A program made the translations under genes and the position numbers. A model generated the notes under the pieces. The model worked only from the letters and a program-made list of their open reading frames with translations, searched no databases and was not told the DNA's origin. This document shows, piece after piece, positions 1,852-31,584 of a DNA stretch of 64,000 nucleotides. Every line of letters starts with the position of its first letter. Position 1 is the stretch's first letter. Origin of the DNA: an uncultured Acidobacteriota bacterium (GTDB lineage: Bacteria > Acidobacteriota > JAQAZP01); contig CAWIIB010000009.1 of NCBI GenBank assembly GCA_963836075.1, positions 3,136,001 to 3,200,000 of the forward strand. Direction: 5' to 3'.

Positions 1852-1927
1852 GGGCCGTTAACTCAGTTGGTAGAGTATCTGCCTTTTAAGCAGAGAGTCG
1901 CTGGTTCGAGTCCAGCACGGCTCACCA
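1852..1927 (+). tRNA. tRNA-Lys (TTT)
   Basis: Acceptor GGGCCGT/ACGGCTC, anticodon arm TCTGC-CTTTTAA-GCAGA, T-loop TTCGAGT, encoded CCA. Confidence 0.97.
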
Positions 1928-1968
1928 ACCTCACCGGCCGTTCCGGTGAGTGAAAAATTTACACCTGC

Positions 1969-2045
1969 GACCCCATCGTCTAGTCAGGTCAGGACACCGG
2001 CCTTTCACGCCGGCAGCACGGGTTCAAATCCCGTTGGGGTCGCCA
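1969..2045 (+). tRNA. tRNA-Glu (TTC)
   Basis: Acceptor GACCCCA/TGGGGTC, anticodon arm CCGGC-CTTTCAC-GCCGG, T-loop TTCAAAT, CCA. Confidence 0.97.
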
Positions 2046-3705: not shown

Positions 3706-5209
3706 TCAGGGCCGTACCGCGATGATGGTGCAGCCATTGATATCCCTGTAGCCGGATACCGGGTATGGCGGCTGGTTCCAGGGGGCCGGGGTCACATCCT
3801 CGGCAACCAGGGTGAATCGGTTGCGCCCGATCAGTGATCCCAGGGCCGGAATGGTCTGATCCCAGGTCCACCTGGTCTCAGCGTCGCCGACGATGTTTGT
3901 ATATCCGGACCTCCAGTTGGCGATGAATTCCCCATTGGCCAGGTTAAAATGAATCCTGGTCGCCACACGGCGGGTTTGATCGGAAACCCTGTTCAACAGG
4001 GTCATTGACATGCGGGTGTCAAAGGGCATGGTGCCGTGCATCGGCACGCAGGAGAAATCGGTGATAAACAGCGTAATGCCAGGCTCCCGCCTGTTGATCA
4101 GCACCGAAATACGAGGGTCCTGGACATTTGTCACCACCGCATCCGGGCCGCCGTCGTTGTTCAGGTCACCCACGGTTGCAGATCCCACCCTTAAACCGGT
4201 TTCATGATAGATTGGCGGCAGAAAAGTCCCGTCACCGTCCCCCAGCATCACCGAAACGGTGTTGCCATAGAAATGATCCACACCATACCGGTTGGCCGTG
4301 ACGAGATCCGGAATGGAGTCCCCATCATGGTCCGCGATGGCCACTGAATACGGATAGCCCACAACGTCGTAGGTCGTGGGTTCCTGGAACGTGCCGTCCC
4401 CGTTGCCCAGGGATACGAGGACGCATTCATTGACGCTGTTGGCGGTGACCAGATCCGGAATGCCGTCGCCATTCAGGTCGTCAGTGGCGATTGAAGCTAT
4501 GCCGTAAACAACCGAGTAGATAATTGCACTCCGGAAGGTGGCATCGCCGTTACCCAGCAAAATCCTGACCTGGCCCAGATATGAACTCACCGCCAGGTCC
4601 GCATGGCCATCACCGTCAAAGTCGTTCCATGACGATTCTGCTGGGGCTGTCCATCGTCCAGTAATTCACCGCGGCCTGGAAGGTGCCGTCCCCGTTGCCC
4701 AGCAGCACTGAGATATTGTTGTGCCCCTCATTGACCACGGCCAGATCCGGGATACTATCACCGTCCAGGTCACCGATGGCCACATCCTTGGGATAGTCAC
4801 CGACTCTGTAGCGGACTTCGGTCTGGAAGGTGCCGTCTCCGTTGCCCAGCCAGACCGAGATCTTGTCACTGAGTTTATTCACTATGATAAGGTCCGGAAT
4901 GCCATCACCGTTCAGATCACCCACCGCAACCTTTTCGGGTTGAAGCCCAGCAGAATACTCCATGGCAGTCTGGAAGGTGCCGTCTCCGTTGCCTAACAGC
5001 ACCGAAATACGGGAGGTGTAAAAACCACTGGCGAAGATAAGATCCTGGGCGCCATCGCCATCCAGATCAGCGATGACCGCGGGCCGGACAATTTCCTCGA
5101 TCTCATAGTCCACTCTTGGTTCGTACAGCTCTGCTTTCGTCGTCGCTGAAGGACAAATACAAAGCGTAACCAGGGCGATGCTGAAAAGACTGATGATTCG
5201 GTAGTTCAT
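3706..5209 (-). CDS. Secreted FG-GAP repeat protein with module B (one frameshift near 4625)
   Basis: ORFs 4616-5209 and 3706-4590 join by removing one base (IVMDDFDGDGHADLAV); tandem paralog of 2131-3639. Confidence 0.82.
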
Positions 5210-5463
5210 CTTTCATCTCCAAAATGAATATTTGTATGAAAACAGAGGACTATTGTTCGTATTCCTAACGGTCTTATCGGCATGCGGGCCGTACGGGATA
5301 AAATATGTTTCCTGAATGACAATCAAGCCCCAAAACAGTTGTTCGCCAGCACTTGAATATGTGATCCGCAGAAACTATATTGAAAAACATACGTGGCGCA
5401 TCAATGCCATAACATTGGGCAACTCACTAAAAACTTTAAGCAGGTCTCATGGGGGGATTCCAG

Positions 5464-8185
5464 ATGAGGAAAAGTGTACTTTTCATTGCAGGGTTGTTTG
5501 TGCTTGGCATCATGACGGGGCCGGTGCTCGCCTGGTACCCGTCCACGGAAACGGTGGAGCTGGGGACGGCCACCTGGTGAGGGTATTGCCCAAGGGCTGC
5601 TTCAGGGATTGAAGCGAACAGAGGCTGGTTCGACTCGAATGAATTTGTTTCCCTCGCCTATTTCGCCAGTTCGGGAGATCTGGGAAACGACGACGCTACT
5701 GCACGTATCGGCTACTACTCCGTATCCGCCTACCCCACCCTGGTCTGGCACGGCACCGTCCAGTTTTCAGGGGCCAGCGTGGATGACGCCACCGGTATGC
5801 CCTATCGGGCCAGAATCCTGAGCCAGATGGGCAGACCGTCCGCCTTCAAAATCACCGTCAACTCCGTCAGCCTGACGGCGCCCACCGGCTCCATCGATCT
5901 CGACATCGAGGTGATGGAGGGCGGGGTGGACATCAGCAACATGTTCCTGCGGATCGCCATCACCGAGGACGCTGTCACTTCCGGCGCGGAGGATTTCGAC
6001 GATGTCACCCGCGGCATGGTGGACGACGTGGCCGTCACGGTGAGCAGTCTGGGAGAGATCCAGAACGTGGTTCGCAGCTTCCCCTTCGATGCGGGCTGGG
6101 TTGCGGGAAATACCGAAGTCATCGCCTTTCTCCAGGACGACACCGACAAGAGGATTCATGCCGCCGCGTCCTCCCTGCCCAAGCCGGACTACAGCCTGGG
6201 GTTTTACTACCTCGGTGAACGCCAGCAGATCGGACCGGCGAAAGGGGAACACCACTTCGATAATTTTGCCGTCTTCAACATGGGGGAGATGACCGATACC
6301 TTCACCGTCGACCTGACCGGTCACATCCCCGATGACTGGGTGGTGGAGATCTGTGACGATGTGGACTGCTACGGCTCGACTTACTCCCAGCAGCTGGCTC
6401 CCGGCGAATCGATGGAGCTGCACATCAAGGTCGAGCCTGGATCGAGCGGGTACGCGGCGATCTCGGTGGATATGAGCCAGGCCAGCCTGATGCACAAGTT
6501 CCCCCGCAACATCGACTACATCTACAACACGGATGACCTGGATGTGCTGCTGGTGGACGATGACGGCGGGGAGACATACGAGGACTATTTCATCGATGCG
6601 CTGGAGCAGAGCGGATACACTTTCGGCTTACTGAAGCGCCTGGAGGGCGGTTTGCCGGCCGGCGCCATCGACAACTTCCCGATGGTCGTCTGGAACGTCG
6701 GCTGGTCCTTCCCGACCCTCGATGCGCAGGACCGGGAGTCGTTGGGCGCCTTCCTCGACGCCGGCGGCTCGCTGTTCATCAGCGGCCAGGACATCGGTTA
6801 CGATCTGAACGACCAGGGTGCGGAAGCCTACCAGTGGTACCAGGACTATCTCCACGCGATCTACGTCTCGGACGACACCAACGATTACACGCTCGACGGC
6901 GTGGCCGGCGACCCGGTCTCCGGCGGAATCGACCTCGTCATCCAGGGCGGGGATGGTGCGGACAACCAGGAATATCCCAGCGATATCGATCCGGCGGATG
7001 GATCCACGGCGGTCATCTGGAGTTACGATGCGGACCGCAATGGCGCGGTGCGTGCCGACACCGGAACACACCGGGTGATCTACCTCGCCTTCGGTTTCGA
7101 GGGGATCGACAACGCCGACGACCGTCGTGCCGTCATGCAGAGCAGTATCACCTGGCTCGATCCCGAGAGCGAATCTGCGTCCAAACGTCTGCTGACCGGT
7201 CCCGGGCCCGGGTTCGACAACCCGCCGCAGGTCAGGGTGTTTCCCCCGGAGCAGGATGCGGCGGCACTCTACGATTTCCCCGCGTACGGAGCCTCCAGTT
7301 ACGGGGTAAACGTGGCCTGCGGCAATGTCACCGGCAGCGGGCTGGATACGATCATCACCGGCGCCGGCCCGGGGGACATCTACGGCCCCCATGTCCGGGG
7401 CTTCTCCGTCGACGGCACGCCGCTGTCCGCGCTCAATTTCCTGGCCTACGGCACGAACAAGTATGGCGTCAACGTGGCGGCGGGTGATATCGACGCCGAC
7501 GGGTACGACGAGATCATCACCGGTGCCGGTCCGGGCGCCGTTTTCGGCCCCCACGTCCGCGGCTGGGACCATGACGGCGGGTCGGGAGTCACCTCGATCG
7601 GAGGGGTGAACTACTTCGCCTACGGTACGCCGAAGTGGGGGGTCAATGTGGCGTGCGGTGACATCGACGGTGACGGCTACGACGAGATCGTCACCGGTGC
7701 CGGACCCGGCGCGGTGTACGGCCCGCACGTCCGCGGCTGGAACGTGGACGGCGGCACCGCCGCCTCGATCCCCGCGGTGAGCTTCTTCGGCTACGGCACG
7801 CTGAAGTACGGCGTGAACGTCACCTGCGGCGACCTGGACGGCGACGGCATCGACGAGATCGTCACCGGCGCGGGGCCGGGAGCGGTTTTCGGCCCCCACG
7901 TTCGCGGCTGGAACTATGACGGCGGCACGGTGGTGTCGATGACCGGGATCAACTTCTTCGCCTGGGACCCGGACGATGCGCGTTTCGGGGCCAGGGTTTT
8001 CGCCGGCGCCGATCTGAACAACGACGGCACGGGATGAGCTGGTTGTGGGGTGCGGACCCGATCCCGATCTGGGCACACCGGTCAAGGTCTATCTCTATGA
8101 CGGAGCAGTTTTGACCGATTGGTTCTCCCTGACCGCCTACACGGACCTGACCCACGGGACCAGTGTCTCGGCTGGAGGGTTCTAG
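5464..8185 (+). CDS. Secreted Omp28/thioredoxin-like selenoprotein (UGYC) with C-terminal module A; in-frame TGA 5578-5580, frameshift near 8028
   Basis: ATG 5464 with signal peptide MRKSVLFIAGLFVLGIMTGPVLA, then VELGTATW-TGA-GYCP in frame with ORF 5779-8037; later YPT cis-Pro loop; removing one base near 8028 gives DGRDELVVG...SAGGF-TAG like paralogs. Confidence 0.82.
5599..5615 (+). promoter_or_regulatory. Putative bacterial SECIS
   Basis: GCTTCA-GGGAT-TGAAGC, loop 24 nt after TGA 5578. Confidence 0.7.
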
Positions 8186-19299: not shown

Positions 19300-20367
19300 A
19301 TGAGCCATCGAACGGACAGGGGGCGCCGGCCCCGCCGGCTGGTCAACATCGTCCTGCTGCTGGCCAGCCTGGCCTGTTGCCTCCTGGCCCTCGAACTGTT
19401 CTGCCGGCTTGGCCCGGCCGACTCCGGTGAGGTCAAGCTCAACGATCCCCACCGCCATGTGAAGACCATCGGCCGGCCCAGGCGGTTCGCCCCCCTGCAC
19501 ACGTATCGCGAGCGGGTCCCCCTGGAATATGACCACCAGGGATACTATGCCCCTTCAAAGGGCCTGGTCAGCTTCCACTCCAACCAGTTCGGCGCCCGCT
19601 GGACCGCGCCGGAAGAACAACCGCTGGCCGAGCAACCCGTCCTTGTTCTCGGCGATTCCTTCACCTATGGCCACGGCCTGCGCTACGAGGACGCTTTTAT
19701 TTTCCGCCTGCAGCAGTTGCTGGTAGAGGAGGGGGCCGGTGTCAGTTTCATCAACTTCTCCCACCGTGGCGCCAATGCCAAACAGGTTTTGAGGAACTAC
19801 GAAGACGTGCGGACACGGGCCCCGCACCAGGAGGTGCTCTACGGTCTGAACATCAACGACCTGGTCTGGTTCCCGGCCAGCCACTTTGTCGTTGGCCCGG
19901 ACGCCCTGACCGGTCTCGCCGAGCACTGGAAGGGCTACGCCTTCATCTCGGGCCGGGTCCACCGCTGGCTGATCCGCCGTCAGCGGATCCGGCAGCTCCT
20001 CTCACCCTCCTCACTGGAGAGCGATGCCTTTGCCGCCAATATGGATGCACTGGTGCGGCTGAACCGGGCGGCATCGGCCCACGGTACGCCGCTCCGCGTG
20101 GCTCTCCTGCCCATCATGGTGGATCTGCAACAGGGGACCCTCCACCCGCTCTACGACGGAATCCGGGAACGGGTGGAAGCCGCAGGGATTGAATGCATCG
20201 ACCTCACCCGCTGCCTTGACGGACGTGCGGACCGCGACCTCTGGGTCCTGCCCTTTGACCAGCATCCCAATGCCGTGGCCAACCAGGTCTTTGCCCGGGA
20301 GCTGTTGGAACAGTACCCGGTGAACTCAGGGTGTGAGCCCGGTCACCTGGCAGCTGTCGGTGGCTGA
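19300..20367 (+). CDS. Membrane-anchored SGNH/GDSL hydrolase family protein
   Basis: N-terminal TM helix, LVLGDSFTYG, LNIND, DQHPN. Confidence 0.82.
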   Translation: MSHRTDRGRRPRRLVNIVLLLASLACCLLALELFCRLGPADSGEVKLNDPHRHVKTIGRPRRFAPLHTYRERVPLEYDHQGYYAPSKGLVSFHSNQFGARWTAPEEQPLAEQPVLVLGDSFTYGHGLRYEDAFIFRLQQLLVEEGAGVSFINFSHRGANAKQVLRNYEDVRTRAPHQEVLYGLNINDLVWFPASHFVVGPDALTGLAEHWKGYAFISGRVHRWLIRRQRIRQLLSPSSLESDAFAANMDALVRLNRAASAHGTPLRVALLPIMVDLQQGTLHPLYDGIRERVEAAGIECIDLTRCLDGRADRDLWVLPFDQHPNAVANQVFARELLEQYPVNSGCEPGHLAAVGG

Positions 20368-20760
20368 GTCCCCTGACGGAGGGTATGGCGGTTGGTTGTA
20401 TGGTGCCGCGGTCACGTCCTCCACCACCAGGGTGAATATATTGTGTCCGGTCAGTGAGCCGAGGGCCGGGATGGTCCGGGCCCAGGAATGATCAGTCGCC
20501 TCCGGTCACCAGGTTGGCGTTGGCGGCCCGCCAGTTGCCGTAGGTCAGGCCTCCGGCCAGCTGGACATTGATCCGGGCGGCCATGGTGCGGGTGGGGCCG
20601 GCGTAGCGGTTGGCCATTCCGGCGGTGATCACAGTCTGGAAGGGCAGGGCGCCAGATTCCGGGACGCAGGTCAGGGATGCTGCCGCCGACGACCAGCCGT
20701 AATGGAATCCCATGTCGGCCTGGCCGGCTGTCGTCCACCCTATCGGTGCGGGTGGTCAGG
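20326..20760 (-). repeat. Near-identical copy of module B DNA at about 22287-22720
   Basis: Long shared tracts, e.g. cccggtcacctggcagctgtcggtggctgagtcccctgacgg and cagctggac..ttgatccgggcggccatggtgcgggtg. Confidence 0.85.
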
Positions 20761-22286: not shown

Positions 22287-24555
22287 TCAGGGAGCGATCC
22301 CGGTCACCTGGCAGCTGTCGGTGGCTGAGTCCCCTGACGGGGGGTAGGGCGGCTGGTTGTATGGCGCCGCGGTCACGTCCTCCACCATCAGGGTGAAAAT
22401 ATTGAGTCCGGTCAGTGAGCCGAGGGCCGGGATGGTCTGGGCCCAGGAACTGATCAGGTCGGCCTCCGGTGCCAGGTTGGCATGGCCGGCCCGCCAGTTG
22501 CCGTAGCTCTGTCCTCCGGCCAGCTGGACGTTGATCCGGGCGGCCATGGTGCGGGTGAAGCCGGCGTAGCGGTTGGCCATTCCAGCGGTGATCAGAGTCT
22601 GGAAGGGCAGGGTGCCCGATTCCGGCAGGCAGGTCAGGGATGCTGCAGCCGACGTCCAGCCGTAGTGGAACCCCATGTCGGCCTGGCCCGTATCGTTCAC
22701 CCGGTCGGTGCGGGTGGTGCAGCGGCCGATACGGGGGACGCTTGCTGCCACCGGTGGACAGGTCTCTTCCGCCAGGTTGCTGCCGGCATCGAGACAGGGG
22801 CTGTCGGCCAGCTGTCCGGCTGCCCGTTGGCTGAGATAGAACGGACCGTCCGGGCCGCTGAGGAAAAGCGGGTTGGCGTCGATGTTGCCGTTGGTCAGCG
22901 TGCCGGCCTCGATGTTGTTGAACCGGGTGTACCAGTCCCTGCCCTGCCAGACCTGGCTGTGGAGGTACGGCTGGTCGGGGGCGTTGTTGCGGATGATGTT
23001 GTTGGTCAGCGCCGGCTTGGAGAGGAAGCAGAGGATGGCTGCCGTCTCCTCGTAGGGGTACTCCTGGTTGTGCACCGGGTTGCCGGAGATGGTGTTGCTG
23101 ATCAGCCGGGGGTAGGAGTAGGCGCAGTAGATGGCCGAGGCGTTGACCAGCACATGGTTGTCGGTGAAAAGACTGTTGTAGATCACCGGTGAAGCGTCGT
23201 AGAGATACACGGCGCCGCCGTATTCGGCGAGGTTGCTGCTGAAGACGCAGCCGGCAATGGTCAGCCTGGAAAACCCGATGGCCGAGACCGCCCCGCCGCC
23301 GAACTCGTAGTCTTCCAGTGTGGCGTCCACCGCCTTGCCGTATTCGATGCGGCAGTATTCCAGCCGGCTGCCCGGGTTGGTGGCCGCCGTGCCGTGGAAG
23401 CGGATACCGTTCCAGCAGCCGGTGAGCGTGCGGTCCAGGTTGAAATCCGCCGGCCGGTCGGTGGTGAAGGTGATCATCGACCGGGGTGAGCCCACGGCAA
23501 TGAGTGTCCCCTGGACCGCGAGGCGGTGGAATCCTTCGAACTCCACCCGGGTGCCGGGGGTGACAGTCAGGGTCACCCCGTCATCCACGGTGACGTCGCC
23601 CACCACCCGCACCAGGTCGGCGTTCCAGGTGGTGTTCACCGCTACCGGGCCGGAGACGACCATCTCGTCACGCCGCGGGATGGTCAGGGGTAGCGGTGGT
23701 TCCTTGCTGTCCGGCCTGGCGGCACGATTGTCCCGGGTAAAGGTCTGGCAGCCGTACCCGGCGGCCGGCGATCCGGGGGCCAGGCTGTAGTCGCCGTTCG
23801 CCGGGTCGGCCAGCTGGGGGTCGGTGCCCACCACGTTGTTCCAGGGGGCCGAACCGGCCCCGTCCCATGGCTGGGGGGCGAATCAGCCGTAGTCGCAGAG
23901 CAGGCCGTAGTGCCGCAGGGCGTTGCTGTTGACCGCCGGGTCGGAGAACCAGGTCCAGTTGTGGTGCACATCCGGGCCGTTGATCCACCCCGGCAGCTCA
24001 CTCATGGCAACGGCCAGGCCGGTGGGCAGCCAGTCGTTGGCCGAGCCGTTGAGGTAGTGCACATCGGGACCCGTGTCCAGCGGATCGACCACGATGTTGT
24101 GGTCCAGTTCGATGTTCCGTGCGCTGGAGAGCAGCCGCACCGCGTAGTCGTGGGGCTGGTAGAAAGTGACGTTGCGCACGAAGCCGGCCGGCCAGTGGTC
24201 GGTGGAGCTGTCCTGATAGCCGCGGTAGCGGATATTGCCGCCCAGGATCACACAGTCGTCGATGTCCAGCCGGTTGCTGCAGTAGGAGATGCAGACCTCC
24301 GCCCCCTGCAGGTCGAGGATCGCCCCGTTACCCACGATCCGCACGTCCTCGCCGCCCGGCTAGAAACTGGGCGGTGATGCGGTTGAAGGTCCCGCCGATG
24401 AGCAGCCCGCCGGTATAGGTCACCCCGGTTTCCAGCACGATGTAGCGGTCGTAGCCCATGGCCGGAGACGCGGCGTCATGCATCTCTTTCAGCGTGGTGG
24501 CGAAGAGCGGCTGGCACAGGGCCAGGGCGAGGATGAAGGGGAGAATTGTGCGCAT
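22287..24555 (-). CDS. Secreted two-part beta-helix protein with hinge and module B; candidate selenoprotein (in-frame TGA 23883-23885), frameshift near 24360
   Basis: Signal peptide MRTILPFILALALCQPLFA; ORFs 23883-24344 and 22287-23834 are in one frame separated only by TGA (LCDYG-TGA-FAPQPWDG); downstream part has no leader of its own. Confidence 0.7.
23845..23861 (-). promoter_or_regulatory. Putative bacterial SECIS
   Basis: Minus strand GGGGCC-GGTTC-GGCCCC, loop 27 nt after TGA. Confidence 0.6.
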
Positions 24556-24632
24556 CGAACATCCAGTGCGGTTTAAGGACAGAACACACCCTCAATATAG
24601 GGTGTTTCGGTCGGGATGGCAAACAGGGGAGC

Positions 24633-27123
24633 TCAGGGGGAAATGGCCGCCACCGCGGCATTGCTCCCGTGGGTCCAGTCCCCGGGATAGGCCTCGAGGG
24701 AGAAGAGCAGGGAGAGATTCCCTTCCTGGTAGCTGTAGACCTTGACCGTCGATCCCATCCGGGGATCGGGCCCGGGGCAGACCACGAACTCGTCCCGGCC
24801 GTCACCGTTCAGGTCGGTGCAGGGGCCGACCCGGGCTCCAAAGCGTGCTTCAGCCGGGTCCCAGGCGAAGAAACCGAACCCGTCCAGTTCGCCCACCGCG
24901 AGACCGTCGAAGTTCCAGCCCCGGATGTGCGCGCCGAATGCCGGGGATGGTCCGGGTGCGGTGACCATCTCGTCGATCCCGTCACCGTCCACATCGCAGC
25001 AGGTGACATTGAGCCCGTATCTTGGTGTGTTGTAGGCGAAGAAACTCACCGCCGGGATGGCCGCGGCGGTTGCGCCGTCCACGTTCCAGCCCCGGACGTG
25101 CGCTCCGTAGATCGGGCCCGGACCGGCGCCGGTGACGATCTCGTCAAAGCCGTCGCCGTCGATATCGCCGGCGCTGACCTTAACCCCCCATTTGGGTGTG
25201 CCGTAGGCGAAGTAGCTGACCCCGGGCACTGCGGAAACAGTGGTATCTGGTGTAGGAGAAAGCACGGACGTGCGGGCCGAACACCGCCCCGGGGCCCGCG
25301 CCGGTGATGATCTCGTCCTTGCCGTCGCCATCGAGGTCGCCGGCCGCCACGTTGACCCCCCACTTGTTGGTGCCGTAGGCCAGGAAGTTGAGGCCGTCCA
25401 CGGGCTCGCCGTCGATGGTAAAGCCGCGCACATGGGGGCCGTAGATGGCTCCGGGGCCGGCGCCGGTGAGCAGTTCGCTCCCCGGGTACCGTCCACGTCG
25501 CCGGTGGCCACGTTGACCCCGAAATTCGACGCGCCGTAGGCTGCGAACTCGAGGGTGTGTGCGGCATCCTGCACTGCAGGGAAGACACGGACCAGGGGCG
25601 GGTTGTCCTCGGCCGGGCCCGGCCCGGTGATAATCATCGCGCTGCCCAGACCCGGGTAGTGAAACCCCATGTCCACCATGCCGACGATCGGTCACCCGGT
25701 CGGTGCGGGTGGACAACGTGGAGAGGGAGACCAGCCCGTCGGGGGTGTCGAAGCTGATGTCGGCGGCAGGTTCGCTTCCCGTGTCCACGCAGGGGCTCTC
25801 CTCGGCTTGCCCGGCTGCAAGCTGGCTCAGGTAGTGGTCGCCGTCGGGCCCGGTTGTAAAGAGAGGGTCGGCGTCGATCATGCCGTCGCCCCAGGTCAGA
25901 TTGCACTGGGGGCAGACATCAACGGCGTCGATTCCGCCCATGATATCGGAGTGACCGATCTCCATGTAGGGCGGGCCCCAGGTATCGCTGACTTCCAGCT
26001 TGATCTTGTACCCCTCTGGGGCAGATGTTGTCCCAGACGATGTTGTTGACGAACTCCAGGGGCCGGTCGTCATAGTTGCTGCCGTGGACCATCACCCCGC
26101 CCACTTCCTGGCCTTCGTTCCCGATGAAGGTGTTGTTCGTCACCGTGGCCCAGGCCAGGCTGAACCAGGCCCCACCGACAGGCGCCCGCGGCCCGGTTGC
26201 GGGCGACCACGTTGTTGATGAACACGCCGTAGTCCACCGGGTAGGTGGAAAAGGAGACCCCGCCGAGGAAGCCCTGGTCTCGTTGTCCACGATCACGTTG
26301 TCGGCCACCAGACTGGTTCTCGCCGCCCACCGCCATGCCGCCTACCCACCGTCTACGGACTGGTTGCCGGCGATCAGGTTGCCGATGATCGAGGCCCCCG
26401 GTTCGGCCAGCACATGAAGCCCGCCGACCGCCGTCCACGGCATCGTTGTTGGTGATCGTGTTGTCGGTGATGAACGGGGCGGCTGAACTCGGATCCGGAT
26501 ACCCCCGCCGGAGTATGAGGCGCTGTTCCCGCTGATCACGTTGTCCATGATGACTGGAACACGTCGGCGCCACCGTAGATCCCGCCGCCCGCGAAGCGCC
26601 TGATTGCCTACGATCCGGTTCCCTGTGATCAGCGGGCCTGCATTGCCGTAAAGGGAGATGCCGCCGCCGCTGCTTCACCGAAGTTACCGGTGATGATGTT
26701 GTTGCGGATAGTTGGGCTGGCGTGGTTTTGAACTGGCGATGCCACCGCCGTAGTTGGCGTCCGGGCTGTTGTAGCCGTTTCTGATGGTGAAGCCTTCCAA
26801 TACGGATCCCCGGCTCTCGCGCTCGTGGAAGAAGAAGCCCGCGGTGGGGATCCGCCTCGCTGCCCTGGCAGTCGATGATGCAGCTTTCCGGGCCGTTCTC
26901 CGAGCGGACGGTGATTGCCTTGCCGAGGAAGTCGATGTCCCGGTTGCCCTCACCGGTGTAGATCCCGTCGGCCACCAGCACCACGTCCTCGAGTCTGGCG
27001 GCATCGATGCCGGCCTGGATGGTGGGCTGGTCGCCGGGGACATGGATGATGTCGGCGTGCAAAACAACAGATAAAACGAGAAGGATAAGAAATGTGATCG
27101 GAACAAGTGCCTTGTCGCATCAT
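24633..27123 (-). pseudogene. Secreted beta-helix protein with hinge and module A, multiply frameshifted (pseudogene or sequencing error)
   Basis: Fragments in alternating frames: ADIIHVPGDQPTIQAGID, beta-helix repeats, SPCVDTG..STRTD, DMGFHY, GPGPG-HVRG repeats. Confidence 0.72.
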
Positions 27124-27131
27124 CGTCTCTC

Positions 27132-29386
27132 CTATCTCATCCACCCGGCGGTGGCGTTGCTGCCGTGACTCCAGCCGGCGGGGAAGGTGTCAAAACTGAG
27201 AATCTGTTCTATGTCATCATCGACATAACGGTAGATTCCTGCCGGTGAGCCACATGTCCGGGTCGGGGCCGGCGGTGACCAGGAACTCGTCGCGGCCGTC
27301 GAAGTCGAGGTCGGCGGCTTTGCCCACCCGTGCTCCGTAGCGCGCTTCCGCCGGGTCCCAGGCAAAGAAACTGAAATTGGGCATGGCGGTGGTCTCCTGG
27401 CCGTCCCAGCGCCAGCCGCGGATGTGGGCGCCGAACTGGCTCGAGGGACCGGGAGAGGTGATCATCTCGTCCACCCCGTCGCCGTTGACGTCGGCGCAGC
27501 AGACGTTGACCCCGTATTTCCAGGTGCCGTAGGCCATGAAGCCCATGTTGTGGATCACTTCGGCCGTGCCCCCGTCCACATTCCAGCCCCGGACGTGGGG
27601 GCCGAATACAGCACCCGGGCCGGGACCGGTGACGATCTCGTCGAAACCGTCGCCGTCGATGTCGCCGGCGGTGAGGTTGACGCCCCACTTCAGCGTGGAG
27701 TAGGCGAAGAAGTTGACGCCGGAAAGCGAGGAGACGCCGCTGCCGGGTGTGTAGGAGAAGGCCCGGACGTGGGGGCCGAACACATCGCCCGGTCCGGCGC
27801 CGGTGATGATCTCGTCTCTGCCATTGCCGTCCAGGTCACCCAGTGCCACGTTGACACCGAATTTGAGTGTGCCGTAGGCCATGAAGTTGAGGTCCTGGAT
27901 CGGGGTGCTGTCCGATTCGAAGCCCCGCACGTGGGGGCCGTAGATGTCGCCCGGTCCGGGGCCGGTGATGATCTCCAGGGCCAGGTCGCCGTCCGGGTCG
28001 CCGCAGGCCACGTTTACTCCGTAACTCGATGCGCCGTACGCCGCAAACTCCCGGATGGGCAGTGGGATGTCTCCCTGGGACATGACCCGGACCAGCGGCG
28101 GATTCAGTTCCGAGGGCCCGGGGCCGGCCACGATGCCCAGGGCCGGGTAGTGGTAGCCGATATCAATGGTGCCGGTATCCGGGTAACCGTCGGTGCGGGT
28201 GACGCCCAGCGGGACCTCGGTGGCCGGGTCGCCGGCATCGACACAGGGGCTGTCCACGGGCTGGCCGGCAGCCTCCTGGCCCAGGTAATACCCGCCCTGC
28301 GGCCCATTGACAAAGAGCGGGTCGGCGCTGATCATGCCCGGCCCCCAGGTGTAGGACGCATCGTCCTCCACCTGGATCGCCGATTCGCCGTTGATCAGGT
28401 TGGAGTAACGGATGTCGAGAGTCTGGTTGTTGTCGATAAGGATGTGTCCGGTGATGATGCAGTTGGTGACCCGGAGATGGTCGCTGTACCGAGGATTCGA
28501 TGTTGGTGATGATATTGCCGTCAAGAATCAGGTCGCCGCTGCCCCGCATCGACATGAGGTCGCTGCAGCTCAGCGTGTCATTGATGAAAATGTTGTTGCG
28601 CACGGTGCCGGAGCAGGTCCAGAGCCCGTCACCGTAGTGGGCACTGTTACCGATGAAGACGTTCCCCTCGACCAGCCTTCCATACTTCACTCCGCCGCCG
28701 TAGCCCTCACCCTGCCCACCCCCTGCGCGGTTGCTCTCGATGAGATTACCGATGATCATGCAGTCGCCGCGCGCAAGAATGCCCCCACCATCGGAATCCG
28801 AATATCGTTGAGTGGTTGAGTTGTCGTAGATCCAGTTGTCTGCGATCAGTGGCGATCCACCATAGGTGTCAATGCCCCCACCCGATCCCCAGGCTCCGTT
28901 CCTGGAGATGGTGTTATTGAAGATTTTCGGTGATCCCCCGAAATTTTTTATTCCGGCTCCGGACACGAGAACATCTACCCAATATTCCCCCCAGCCGTTG
29001 AGGGAAATGATATTGCCGGTAATGGTTGGAGAGGAGTCCTCACAGTAGATCCCTCCGCCCACGGCGTTGGTGATAGTGAATCCCCCGATGAATGCACTGG
29101 GGCCTTCACCATTGGCAAAGGTCACCGCCCTTTCCTCATGGAAACTCCCGTCTATCATTGTCAGTACAGGTCCGGCTGAACTGCGGACGACGATGTTCTT
29201 CCCCAGAAAACTGATGGGGTCATAATAGGTGCCGGGGCCCACCATTACCGTGTCACCGTCCACCGCCGCGTCGATGCCGGCCTGGATCGTGGGCTGGTCG
29301 CCGGGAACGTGGATGGTGGCGGCGGGGAGCTGAACCGCCGGAATGAGGAGGATGAGTATCCAGACGATGATCAGCAGCCGGGCCAT
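27132..29386 (-). CDS. Secreted beta-helix protein with hinge and module A (frameshifts near 28495 and 27250)
   Basis: MARLLIIVWILILL leader, ATIHVPGDQPTIQAG; continues in ORFs 27217-28524 and 27132-27365, ends TAGWMR. Confidence 0.78.
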
Positions 29387-29483
29387 GGCGTTCTCCGTAG
29401 TTTTCATGCAGTGATGAGACGGAGCACTGACGCAATTCTACCGCATTTGTGATTGTCCATGAAAAATAATGCAGGTGCCGGAA

Positions 29484-30282: not shown

Positions 30283-31584
30283 CTACTCCTGGCTGGCAGG
30301 GGCCTTGTCCATGTCTTCCTTGATCTTCTCGATCCGTTCCACATACTGGGTGTTTTTGCCGCCGCTCATCTCCAGGGCCTGCTGTTCGGTCTCCAGGGCC
30401 AGCTGGTGGTCGCCCATCATCCACTGGACCATGCTCATGGTGTCCAGCAGGTTGTCGTCCGCCGGGTCGATCTCGGTTGCACGCTGGATCGCCTGGAGCG
30501 CGCTGTCGAGGTTTTTCTCCTGCAGGGCCCAGAACCAGGCGTAGCCGTTCAGCGTGGGGGCGTCATCGGCCATGAACGGCGCGATGTAGTCCTCACCGTA
30601 GACCGCCAGTGCCTTCTCGTCCAGGCCGGCCTTGATATAGAGCCGGGCCAGCTCGGGATTGATGTGGGAATCAGGTTCGAATGTCTCCAGCGATGTGAGG
30701 TGGTCGGCCAGTTCAACAGCCCGTTCGGTATTGTATCCGGTCTGGGTGCTGGCGCTGATGTAGGTGCTGAGCAGCGGGATCTCGTCGGGATACTGTTCAA
30801 TGAGCATCTCGGCCACGCCGAAGCCCCCTTCGCGGGTGGCGTCCCGGCTCATCTCGCGCCGCAGGAGATCGAACGCCGTGCCCCGCAGGCTGCTCTCCGG
30901 GTAGTCGGCCAGCGTTTCCGGGATCCGTTCCGGCTTCTCGTAGAGCTGCATGAACCGGGCGAACTCCAGGGCGTTGATCTCTTCGTGGTTGTCGCCCAGG
31001 GGCAGGGTGAGGGCCGCCGTCTCATCCGCCCGCTGGACCAGGGTTCGGACAAAAGGCGCCATGTCGTCATAGCTGTAGTTGCCCTTGTGCTTGCGGGCCA
31101 GCCGGGCCACGGTGGCCAAATCTTCCGGGTTCTCGGCAAAGGCCCGGCGCAGGGCCAGCAGGGTGTACTCTCCGGTGTAGGCCTGCTCCAGCCTGGTGCG
31201 GTATTCGGCCGCTGGCGGGCCGTATCCCACCAACCGGTCGATCTCCTCGCCCTGGTCATTGAGCACCAGCACCGCGGGGGTGCCGCGGATCTTGAACTTC
31301 TCGAAGAGCGTCTTGCCCAGATCCTCGGTGGAGTCGGCGTGGACCAGGACAAAGGTGCTGCTGAGGTATTCGGCGAACTCGCTGTTGTTGAAAAATTGCT
31401 GATCCAGCAATTTGCAGGGGCCTCACGTGGGTGAATAGAAGTCGATGAGGATCAGCTTGTTCTCGGCCCGGGCCTGCTCCTGTGCCGCCTCGAAGGTTTC
31501 CCCTTCGAACCAGAACGGCGCCTGCTGGCAACCCGCGGCGGTGAGCAGCATCAGGATTGAAAGTAGTGTGAGGCCTTTTCGCAT
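30283..31584 (-). CDS. Thioredoxin-domain/TPR lipoprotein, selenoprotein (UGPC); in-frame TGA 31423-31425
   Basis: AAGGAG RBS, lipobox TAAGC, AQEQARAENKLILIDFYSPT-TGA-GPCKLLD, GTP cis-Pro loop, C-terminal TPR-like helices (LNGYAW, LDT). Confidence 0.87.
31393..31413 (-). promoter_or_regulatory. Putative bacterial SECIS
   Basis: AAATTGCT-GGATC-AGCAATTT, loop 17 nt after TGA. Confidence 0.78.

Follow-up and report, generated by a model that had tools for sequence, protein, structure and literature searches.

A putative exported selenoprotein of the Omp28/HBP35 structural type with an overlooked gene start in an uncultured Acidobacteriota bacterium

The thioredoxin-like UxxC family GOS_C was described in 2008 from 74 selenocysteine (Sec)-containing sequences, for which that report gives no functional evidence (PMC2398784), and it is listed under NF045500 in Table 1 of a 2026 review (PMC13188914). 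HBP35, a surface thioredoxin of Porphyromonas gingivalis, reduces insulin via C48/C51 and binds hemin; complementation of E. coli dsbA has also been reported for it, and its display at the surface depends on its C-terminal residues (PMC2907840). We found no publication joining the terms "Omp28" and "selenoprotein", nor one describing the clade reported here, members of which may be listed in BSepDB; "Omp28" is also absent from the main text of PMC13326102 and PMC12013277. The preliminary description of the locus overlooked that Omp28-related selenoproteins had already been catalogued as GOS_C and NF045500.

The gene analyzed here lies on the plus strand of a 64-kb stretch of DNA from an uncultured Acidobacteriota bacterium, hereafter the window. 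The listed ORF begins with a GTG at position 5779, which is in frame with and 105 codons downstream of an ATG at position 5464; by sequence inspection, this ATG is preceded by the purine run GGGGGGA at 5451-5457. The overlooked part encodes a hydrophobic, signal-like N terminus followed by VELGTATW-TGA-GYCP, with the TGA at 5578-5580. The missing codons, the signal-like segment and the motif had all been pointed out in the preliminary description, and the sequence bears them out. Furthermore, a hydropathy test found a Met followed by a hydrophobic 12-mer in frame upstream of the TGA in 29 of 29 aligned TGA rows, the window included. As judged from the DNA, the start of the selenoprotein gene was indeed overlooked by gene calling, and the gene is unannotated. 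The features discussed below are as follows (L001 is the closest genomic relative of the window).

5451..5457, plus strand: RBS-like purine run, seen in the sequence; the same run precedes the L001 start
5464..5532, plus strand: residues 1-23, predicted signal peptide, from visual inspection and the hydropathy test
5533..6180, plus strand: residues 24-239, Omp28/HBP35-like domain in which an Ig-like part accompanies the thioredoxin fold, from profiles and model
5578..5580, plus strand: in-frame TGA, putative Sec39, first position of U-G-Y-C; 28 TGA and 28 TGC/TGT in 56 loci
5587..5589, plus strand: Cys42, predicted resolving cysteine; Cys in 29/29 TGA rows
5598..5616, plus strand: candidate bacterial SECIS hairpin with 7-bp stem and GGGAU loop, 24 nt after the UGA; fits the consensus of PMC13188914
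5734..5736, plus strand: Pro91, likely thioredoxin cis-proline; at least 90% conserved in alignment A3 and aligned with the conserved P of 1FO5
6196..6531, plus strand: middle domain, all-beta and probably Ig-like; modeled as strands alone
6538..7167, plus strand: class I glutamine-amidotransferase-like (ThuA-like) domain without Cys, from fold matches
7174..8185, plus strand: module A, FG-GAP repeat C-terminal tail, from Pfam FG-GAP, window copies and database matches
8029..8037, plus strand: one extra base compared with L001, leading to a premature TGA at 8035-8037; three-frame translation and blastn against L001
30283-31584, minus strand: second hidden selenoprotein candidate, 433 aa, with TGA at 31425-31423; open frame, motif and hairpin

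Like NF045500/GOS_C, the predicted protein combines a thioredoxin-like fold, a UxxC motif, Sec/Cys pairing and a downstream SECIS-like hairpin. Unlike that family, its match is confined to positions 47-264 of the 377 in the profile and scores 30-35 bits, where the curated cutoff is 200 (30.3 bits for the whole sequence, 35.1 for the domain and 26.6 for L001), and it adds Ig-like and amidotransferase-like domains and an FG-GAP tail. NF045500 is the best NCBIfam match of the Omp28/HBP35-like domain (E value of 9e-9), while NF033782, the Omp28 lipoprotein profile, gave an E value of 0.004 and Pfam Omp28 (PF11551) matched the read-through protein with an E value of 0.008 and 16.4 bits, the gathering cutoff being 34.9. 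The protein thus scores below both Omp28 cutoffs, and it has no lipobox Cys. The Omp28/thioredoxin affinity put forward in the preliminary description is therefore recovered by profile search as far as the best match is concerned, but below every cutoff. Of the 57 aligned family members, 43 give E values up to 0.01 with PF11551, and the more distant relative P0038 passes its cutoff with 43.6 bits.

An AlphaFold model of residues 24-569, computed with a 57-sequence alignment, reached a pLDDT of 94.5. The top match of this predicted model in both fold searches was HBP35 (5Y1A; Z score of 22.7, rmsd of 2.4, 206 residues aligned, 13% identity), and the thioredoxin fold joined to an Ig-like part, which serves as the structural criterion for HBP35/Omp28, is present in the model. 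As modeled, the protein resembles HBP35 in its two-part fold, in the placement of Y41-C42-P43 (Y50-C51-P52 in HBP35) and in having both an export signal and a C-terminal tail. It differs in carrying a predicted Sec in place of a Cys, in the low sequence identity given above and in its architecture, as HBP35 comprises 344 aa with a T9SS C-terminal domain, versus 906 aa here, which include two additional domains and module A. With respect to T9SS cargo (TIGR04183, PF18962 and PF13860), relatives of the protein carry such a tail where the window protein has module A. Collectively, the protein is akin to GOS_C and HBP35, yet it falls below the membership cutoffs and has another architecture. A sequence search of the PDB with the single domain returned nothing better than an E value of 0.02, and a profile search with the domain yielded 661 cluster representatives at E values up to 0.001, which indicates that the wider fold family is large. 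By analogy with thioredoxins, Pro91 is likely to adopt cis geometry.

In the middle domain, the pair Cys297/Cys302 is partly conserved, each position being Cys in 29 of 57 rows. The amidotransferase-like domain was recognized from matches of the model to 2GK3 (Z score of 17.3), 3RHT (16.7) and 1T0B (15.1). No Cys occurs between residues 303 and 618, so that the Cys of a nucleophile elbow is missing and the likeness is one of fold only; the domain is possibly a ligand-binding or non-Cys active site. His464 is near-invariant (56 of 57 rows). A conserved G-Q-D-I-G stands at a strand-turn-helix position of this domain; in archaeal and Chloroflexota loci, the domain also occurs independently of the Omp28 domain.

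As assembled, the reading frame ends at the TGA at 8035-8037, giving 857 aa, and the remainder of module A runs on in another frame up to the TAG at 8183-8185 (three-frame translation). L001, which is 89% identical, has one base fewer near 8029-8033 (blastn; one gap in 236 columns), and its copy runs uninterrupted over 906 aa. An assembly error is the most likely source of the extra base near 8030, a cause favored by the fact that several other genes of the neighboring array are frameshifted as well; if the base is real, the window copy has a broken tail. The length of about 900 aa and the end at 8185 proposed earlier thus hold for L001 and not for the assembled frame, the one-base indel having gone unmentioned. 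Reading the TGA at 8035 as a second Sec codon was considered and rejected, since read-through yields no module A sequence and the conserved end lies in another frame. A promoter and terminator scan gave two promoter-like sites versus 1.0 ± 0.9 expected and no terminator.

A scan of a genome collection with alignment A1 identified 390 relatives, of which the best 80 were kept, 24 of them lacking an N-terminal match. In the 56 N-terminus-bearing loci, the codon aligned with the TGA is TGA in 28, TGC in 22, TGT in 6 and nothing else, and 27 of the 28 TGA frames are open for at least 539 codons. The in-frame TGA thus aligns with a conserved Cys of homologs, one of the criteria for a bacterial selenoprotein. 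The preliminary description had put the TGA in the place of the attacking Cys, the first one in an Omp28/thioredoxin-like CxxC. This codon pairing, together with the fold and the motif, supports that placement, and the Sec/Cys alternation among homologs is the one suggested there as a check. In the protein database, 27 of 34 matches begin just after residue 39 and hence lack the signal peptide and active site, whereas all 7 full-length proteins carry W-CxxC; for the truncated metagenome proteins P0002 and P0004-P0033, the TGA was deduced from their start points. A quick, midpoint-rooted tree computed from 56 rows, with L071 omitted, requires at least five Sec/Cys switches of unspecified direction and has the window and L001 nested inside a group of mostly Eisenbacteria records. 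The relatives as a whole come from Eisenbacteria, Krumholzibacteriota, Acidobacteriota and WOR-3 records. Based on these comparisons, residue 39 is very probably Sec.

One relative departs from this pattern. L010:10046-10057 reads TGA-GGC-TAG-TGC, with a TAG two codons past the TGA, where relatives have Tyr; the frame is otherwise open for 626 codons, and the TAG may be an error, a nonsense mutation or a case of recoding. This TAG and the many indels of the window, one of them within the selenoprotein gene, would suit a pseudogene in which the TGA is a true stop or a sequencing error. Such an explanation is hardly credible, given that the same TGA occurs in 28 independent loci of several phyla with intact downstream frames, the 89%-identical L001 among them, and as regards the TGA at 5578 it is largely refuted.

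The hairpin that the preliminary description placed after the TGA is present, with arms (T)GCTTCA at 5598-5604 and TGAAGC(G) at 5610-5616 enclosing the loop GGGAT at 5605-5609. The bacterial SECIS model specifies a loop of 3-9 nt, a stem of 4-16 bp, a G in loop position 1 or 2 and a spacing of 16-37 nt (PMC13188914). With its 5-nt GGGAU loop, 7 bp and 24-nt spacing, the hairpin is within the loop, stem and spacing rules of that review, and its energy is -6.6 kcal/mol for the bare hairpin and -9.2 kcal/mol for 5590-5625, compared with the limit of -7.5 kcal/mol or lower. Taken alone, the hairpin is within chance: z scores range from -0.39 to -1.15 over four windows, and an equally good hairpin follows 290 of the 1735 TGA triplets in the six frames of the 64-kb window. 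Long open frames, an xxC motif and a hairpin occur jointly at only 2 of these 1735 triplets, at 5578 on the plus strand and 31425 on the minus strand, and both lie in thioredoxin-fold genes.

Comparison across the rows associates the hairpin with the TGA. The GG of the loop is invariant in 29 of 29 TGA rows; a G-loop hairpin of -4 kcal/mol or lower is formed in 16 of 29 TGA rows versus 2 of 28 Cys rows, and the pair +22/+32 is retained in 22 of 29 versus 2 of 28, with U-A to G-C exchanges, under the reservation that p values for the hairpin are overstated because the rows are related by descent. Compensatory changes occur at two stem pairs. RNAalifold found no consensus structure across the 29 TGA rows; the two outer stem pairs are broken in 18 and 21 of them, respectively, and Krumholzibacteria-type rows favor a different hairpin at +32/33.

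No selA, selB, selD or tRNA-Sec was found in the 64-kb window or in the fetched flanks of relatives. E. coli SelA, SelB and SelD, used as queries, matched nothing in the window or across the 1.13 Mb of loci L001-L080, ARAGORN detected no tRNA-Sec in the 28 TGA loci, and an Rfam scan of the window returned two tRNAs only. The sel genes may stand far from their target genes. The second candidate in the window, with its TGA at 31425, has a lipoprotein-type signal, the motif FYSPT-U-GPC, thioredoxin and TPR domains and a 9-bp hairpin with a GAU loop 18 nt past the UGA; all 9 of its closest relatives begin after the motif, and 9 distant ones carry W-CxxC. The occurrence of this second UxxC thioredoxin gene suggests, at the level of sequence, that the genome decodes Sec. 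The missing sel genes in the window and searched loci would also fit a non-Sec route by which the TGA specifies Cys or some other residue, or a reassignment of TGA in this organism, and Cys-inserting UGA tRNAs have been reported from some bacteria. We regard this as highly improbable, as only Cys codons alternate with the TGA, the SECIS-like pairing follows the TGA rows, and 13 of the 18 window genes examined use TGA as their ordinary stop.

Our main reading, to which we assign a probability of roughly 0.72, is that the gene encodes an exported Sec thiol-disulfide oxidoreductase of the Omp28/HBP35 structural type, with the mechanism and tail role proposed here. UGA 39 would be decoded as Sec by means of the downstream hairpin, as the observed conservation of the TGA suggests, and the signal peptide would carry the protein across the inner membrane. 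The extracytoplasmic location assumed earlier gains support from the hydrophobic, signal-like N terminus shared by all 29 TGA rows. Sec39 would then attack a disulfide of an envelope or extracellular protein, Cys42 would resolve the mixed bond, and a periplasmic TlpA/DsbD-type path would re-reduce the enzyme; this chemistry is modeled on HBP35 and the general thioredoxin mechanism, while the fold is seen in the model and the motif in the sequence. The GY dipeptide between the active-site residues is that of the isomerase DsbC, which favors reductase or isomerase action. The enzyme would most likely reduce or isomerize surface proteins in general and not act for one neighbor, and module A, as the standard C-terminal tail of the lineage, probably has the surface role that the T9SS C-terminal domain has in HBP35. 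We infer the Sec insertion, export, activity, partner and surface location of the protein from these comparisons.

Alternatively, the redox domain could act in heme or metal uptake or sensing, the amidotransferase-like domain providing a binding or second catalytic site. HBP35 binds hemin through the part that follows its CxxC, and growth at low hemin depends on it (PMC2907840), ZnuA/ABC-3 genes flank three Cys-type loci, and His464 is conserved in all rows but one. This function is nevertheless quite unlikely, as no conserved His was found in the Omp28-like domain at the threshold used and the metal-transport neighbors are confined to one clade.

The selenoprotein gene belongs to an array of genes whose secreted proteins end in interchangeable tails (window 2131-29407), namely, module A in six copies and module B, of about 115 aa, in five. 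Apart from the window, module B recurs in L001 and in a single further locus, L058, which is labeled Acidobacteriota. Outside our gene, the module A, module B and beta-helix matches of the window fall on the minus strand without exception, so the description of our gene as the only array member on the plus strand holds; the sharing of its tail with array neighbors is likewise upheld, since module A is common to the selenoprotein gene and five minus-strand array genes. Several array genes are split by frameshifts, at 4540-4680, 20300-20720 and 24500-29450, densely so at 24.5-29.4 kb, which suggests assembly indel errors or decay of the array. The array is bordered by tRNA-Lys and tRNA-Glu genes (window 1852-2045), which follow purA. 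In L001, the selenoprotein gene stands directly after tRNA-Glu and the upstream FG-GAP genes are absent, which gives the array the look of a variable cluster beside tRNA genes.

The preliminary description proposed that the enzyme might handle the disulfides of its beta-helix neighbors; it would then be dedicated to catalyzing the folding of these Cys-containing proteins. The gene is indeed adjacent to the array in both the window and L001, its module A tail is held in common with the neighbors, and the neighbors' passengers contain 1.9-3.5% Cys. However, among the best 80 of 390 loci, none but the window and L001 have module A and the array linker in the vicinity of the gene, and just 5 of 80 have the beta-helix N-terminal domain there; moreover, the gene is on the opposite strand and convergent with the array, module A is carried by 26 unrelated passenger families, and the content of the array differs even in L001. 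Judged from these loci, 31 of the 56 having at least 15 kb of DNA, a dedicated role of this kind is thus unlikely, and we favor a general oxidoreductase instead. The neighbors that recur among the best 80 of 390 loci are a TlpA/ResA-type redoxin (14 of 80) and DUF6029 (12 of 80), within the same flanks. The 12 DUF6029 loci comprise 8 Cys-type loci, 1 TGA-type locus and 3 without an N-terminal match, and the 64-kb window itself contains no TlpA or DUF6029 match.

Several side observations were made in these neighborhoods. L050:8346-10241 is a natural fusion of a TlpA-type redoxin with DUF6029, beside a Cys-type family member. Five further signal-peptide genes with an in-frame TGA-xxC and strong hairpins (L037:8320, L042:1244, L042:4354, L049:8304 and L071:8540) adjoin TlpA and DUF6029 genes, the L042 cluster having three such genes; their truncated forms gave no Omp28-type NCBIfam match. 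At L048:3197 there is a tandem second TGA-type copy of the family gene, and at L006:14313 a glutaredoxin-like TPT-TGA-PYC candidate near a Cys-type member.

Module A is an FG-GAP repeat unit of roughly 330 aa that ends mostly in AGxF. It was matched by 2758 of 8000 scored candidates, and among the best 120 matches it is C-terminal in 118, ends with Phe in 89 and follows 26 N-terminal families. Its C-terminal position on at least 26 unrelated passenger families marks it as a generic appendage of secreted proteins. The passengers, as seen in 26 scanned proteins, include beta-helix proteins, peptidases of families C25, S8 and M28, Porphyromonas-type PAD, GDSL and SBBP; the set of C25, Porphyromonas-type PAD, S8, M28 and SBBP is typical of T9SS cargo. 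At the position of module A, 55 loci from the best 80 of 390 (L010 left out), classified with our own pattern, have 41 FlgD/T9SS-like tails, 5 short tails of the DGFESG type, 8 others and 1 module A, and profiles back the FlgD_ig or T9SS-tail similarity for example loci. The T9SS sorting-domain profiles TIGR04183, PF18962 and PF13860 matched neither the window protein nor L001. A single-sequence model of module A was unusable (pLDDT of 38.9), an Atlas search with module A returned FG-GAP/VCBS clusters only, at low recognition, and we found no published account of module A as a sorting signal.

By analogy with the tail of HBP35, module A probably directs the protein to the cell surface or holds it there. 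More tentatively, and with doubt prevailing, module A could be an undescribed C-terminal export or anchoring domain that replaces the T9SS domain lineage-wide; the gene, a selenoenzyme gene nested among Eisenbacteria sequences, would then have been re-tailed for this route, and its product, displayed outside the cell, would form the end of a TlpA-DUF6029-Omp28 electron path across the envelope, the surface members of which would often be hidden selenoproteins.

A selenoprotein of this type has been predicted since 2008, and the surprise is limited to that extent. Nonetheless, our analysis adds a multiphylum clade of predicted exported selenoproteins, whose members are missed by current profiles and truncated by gene callers. 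The at least five Sec/Cys switches within one family provide matched pairs for asking what is gained by Sec outside the cytoplasm, and the exchange of tails hints that uncultured bacteria may possess a sorting or anchoring signal of a new kind.
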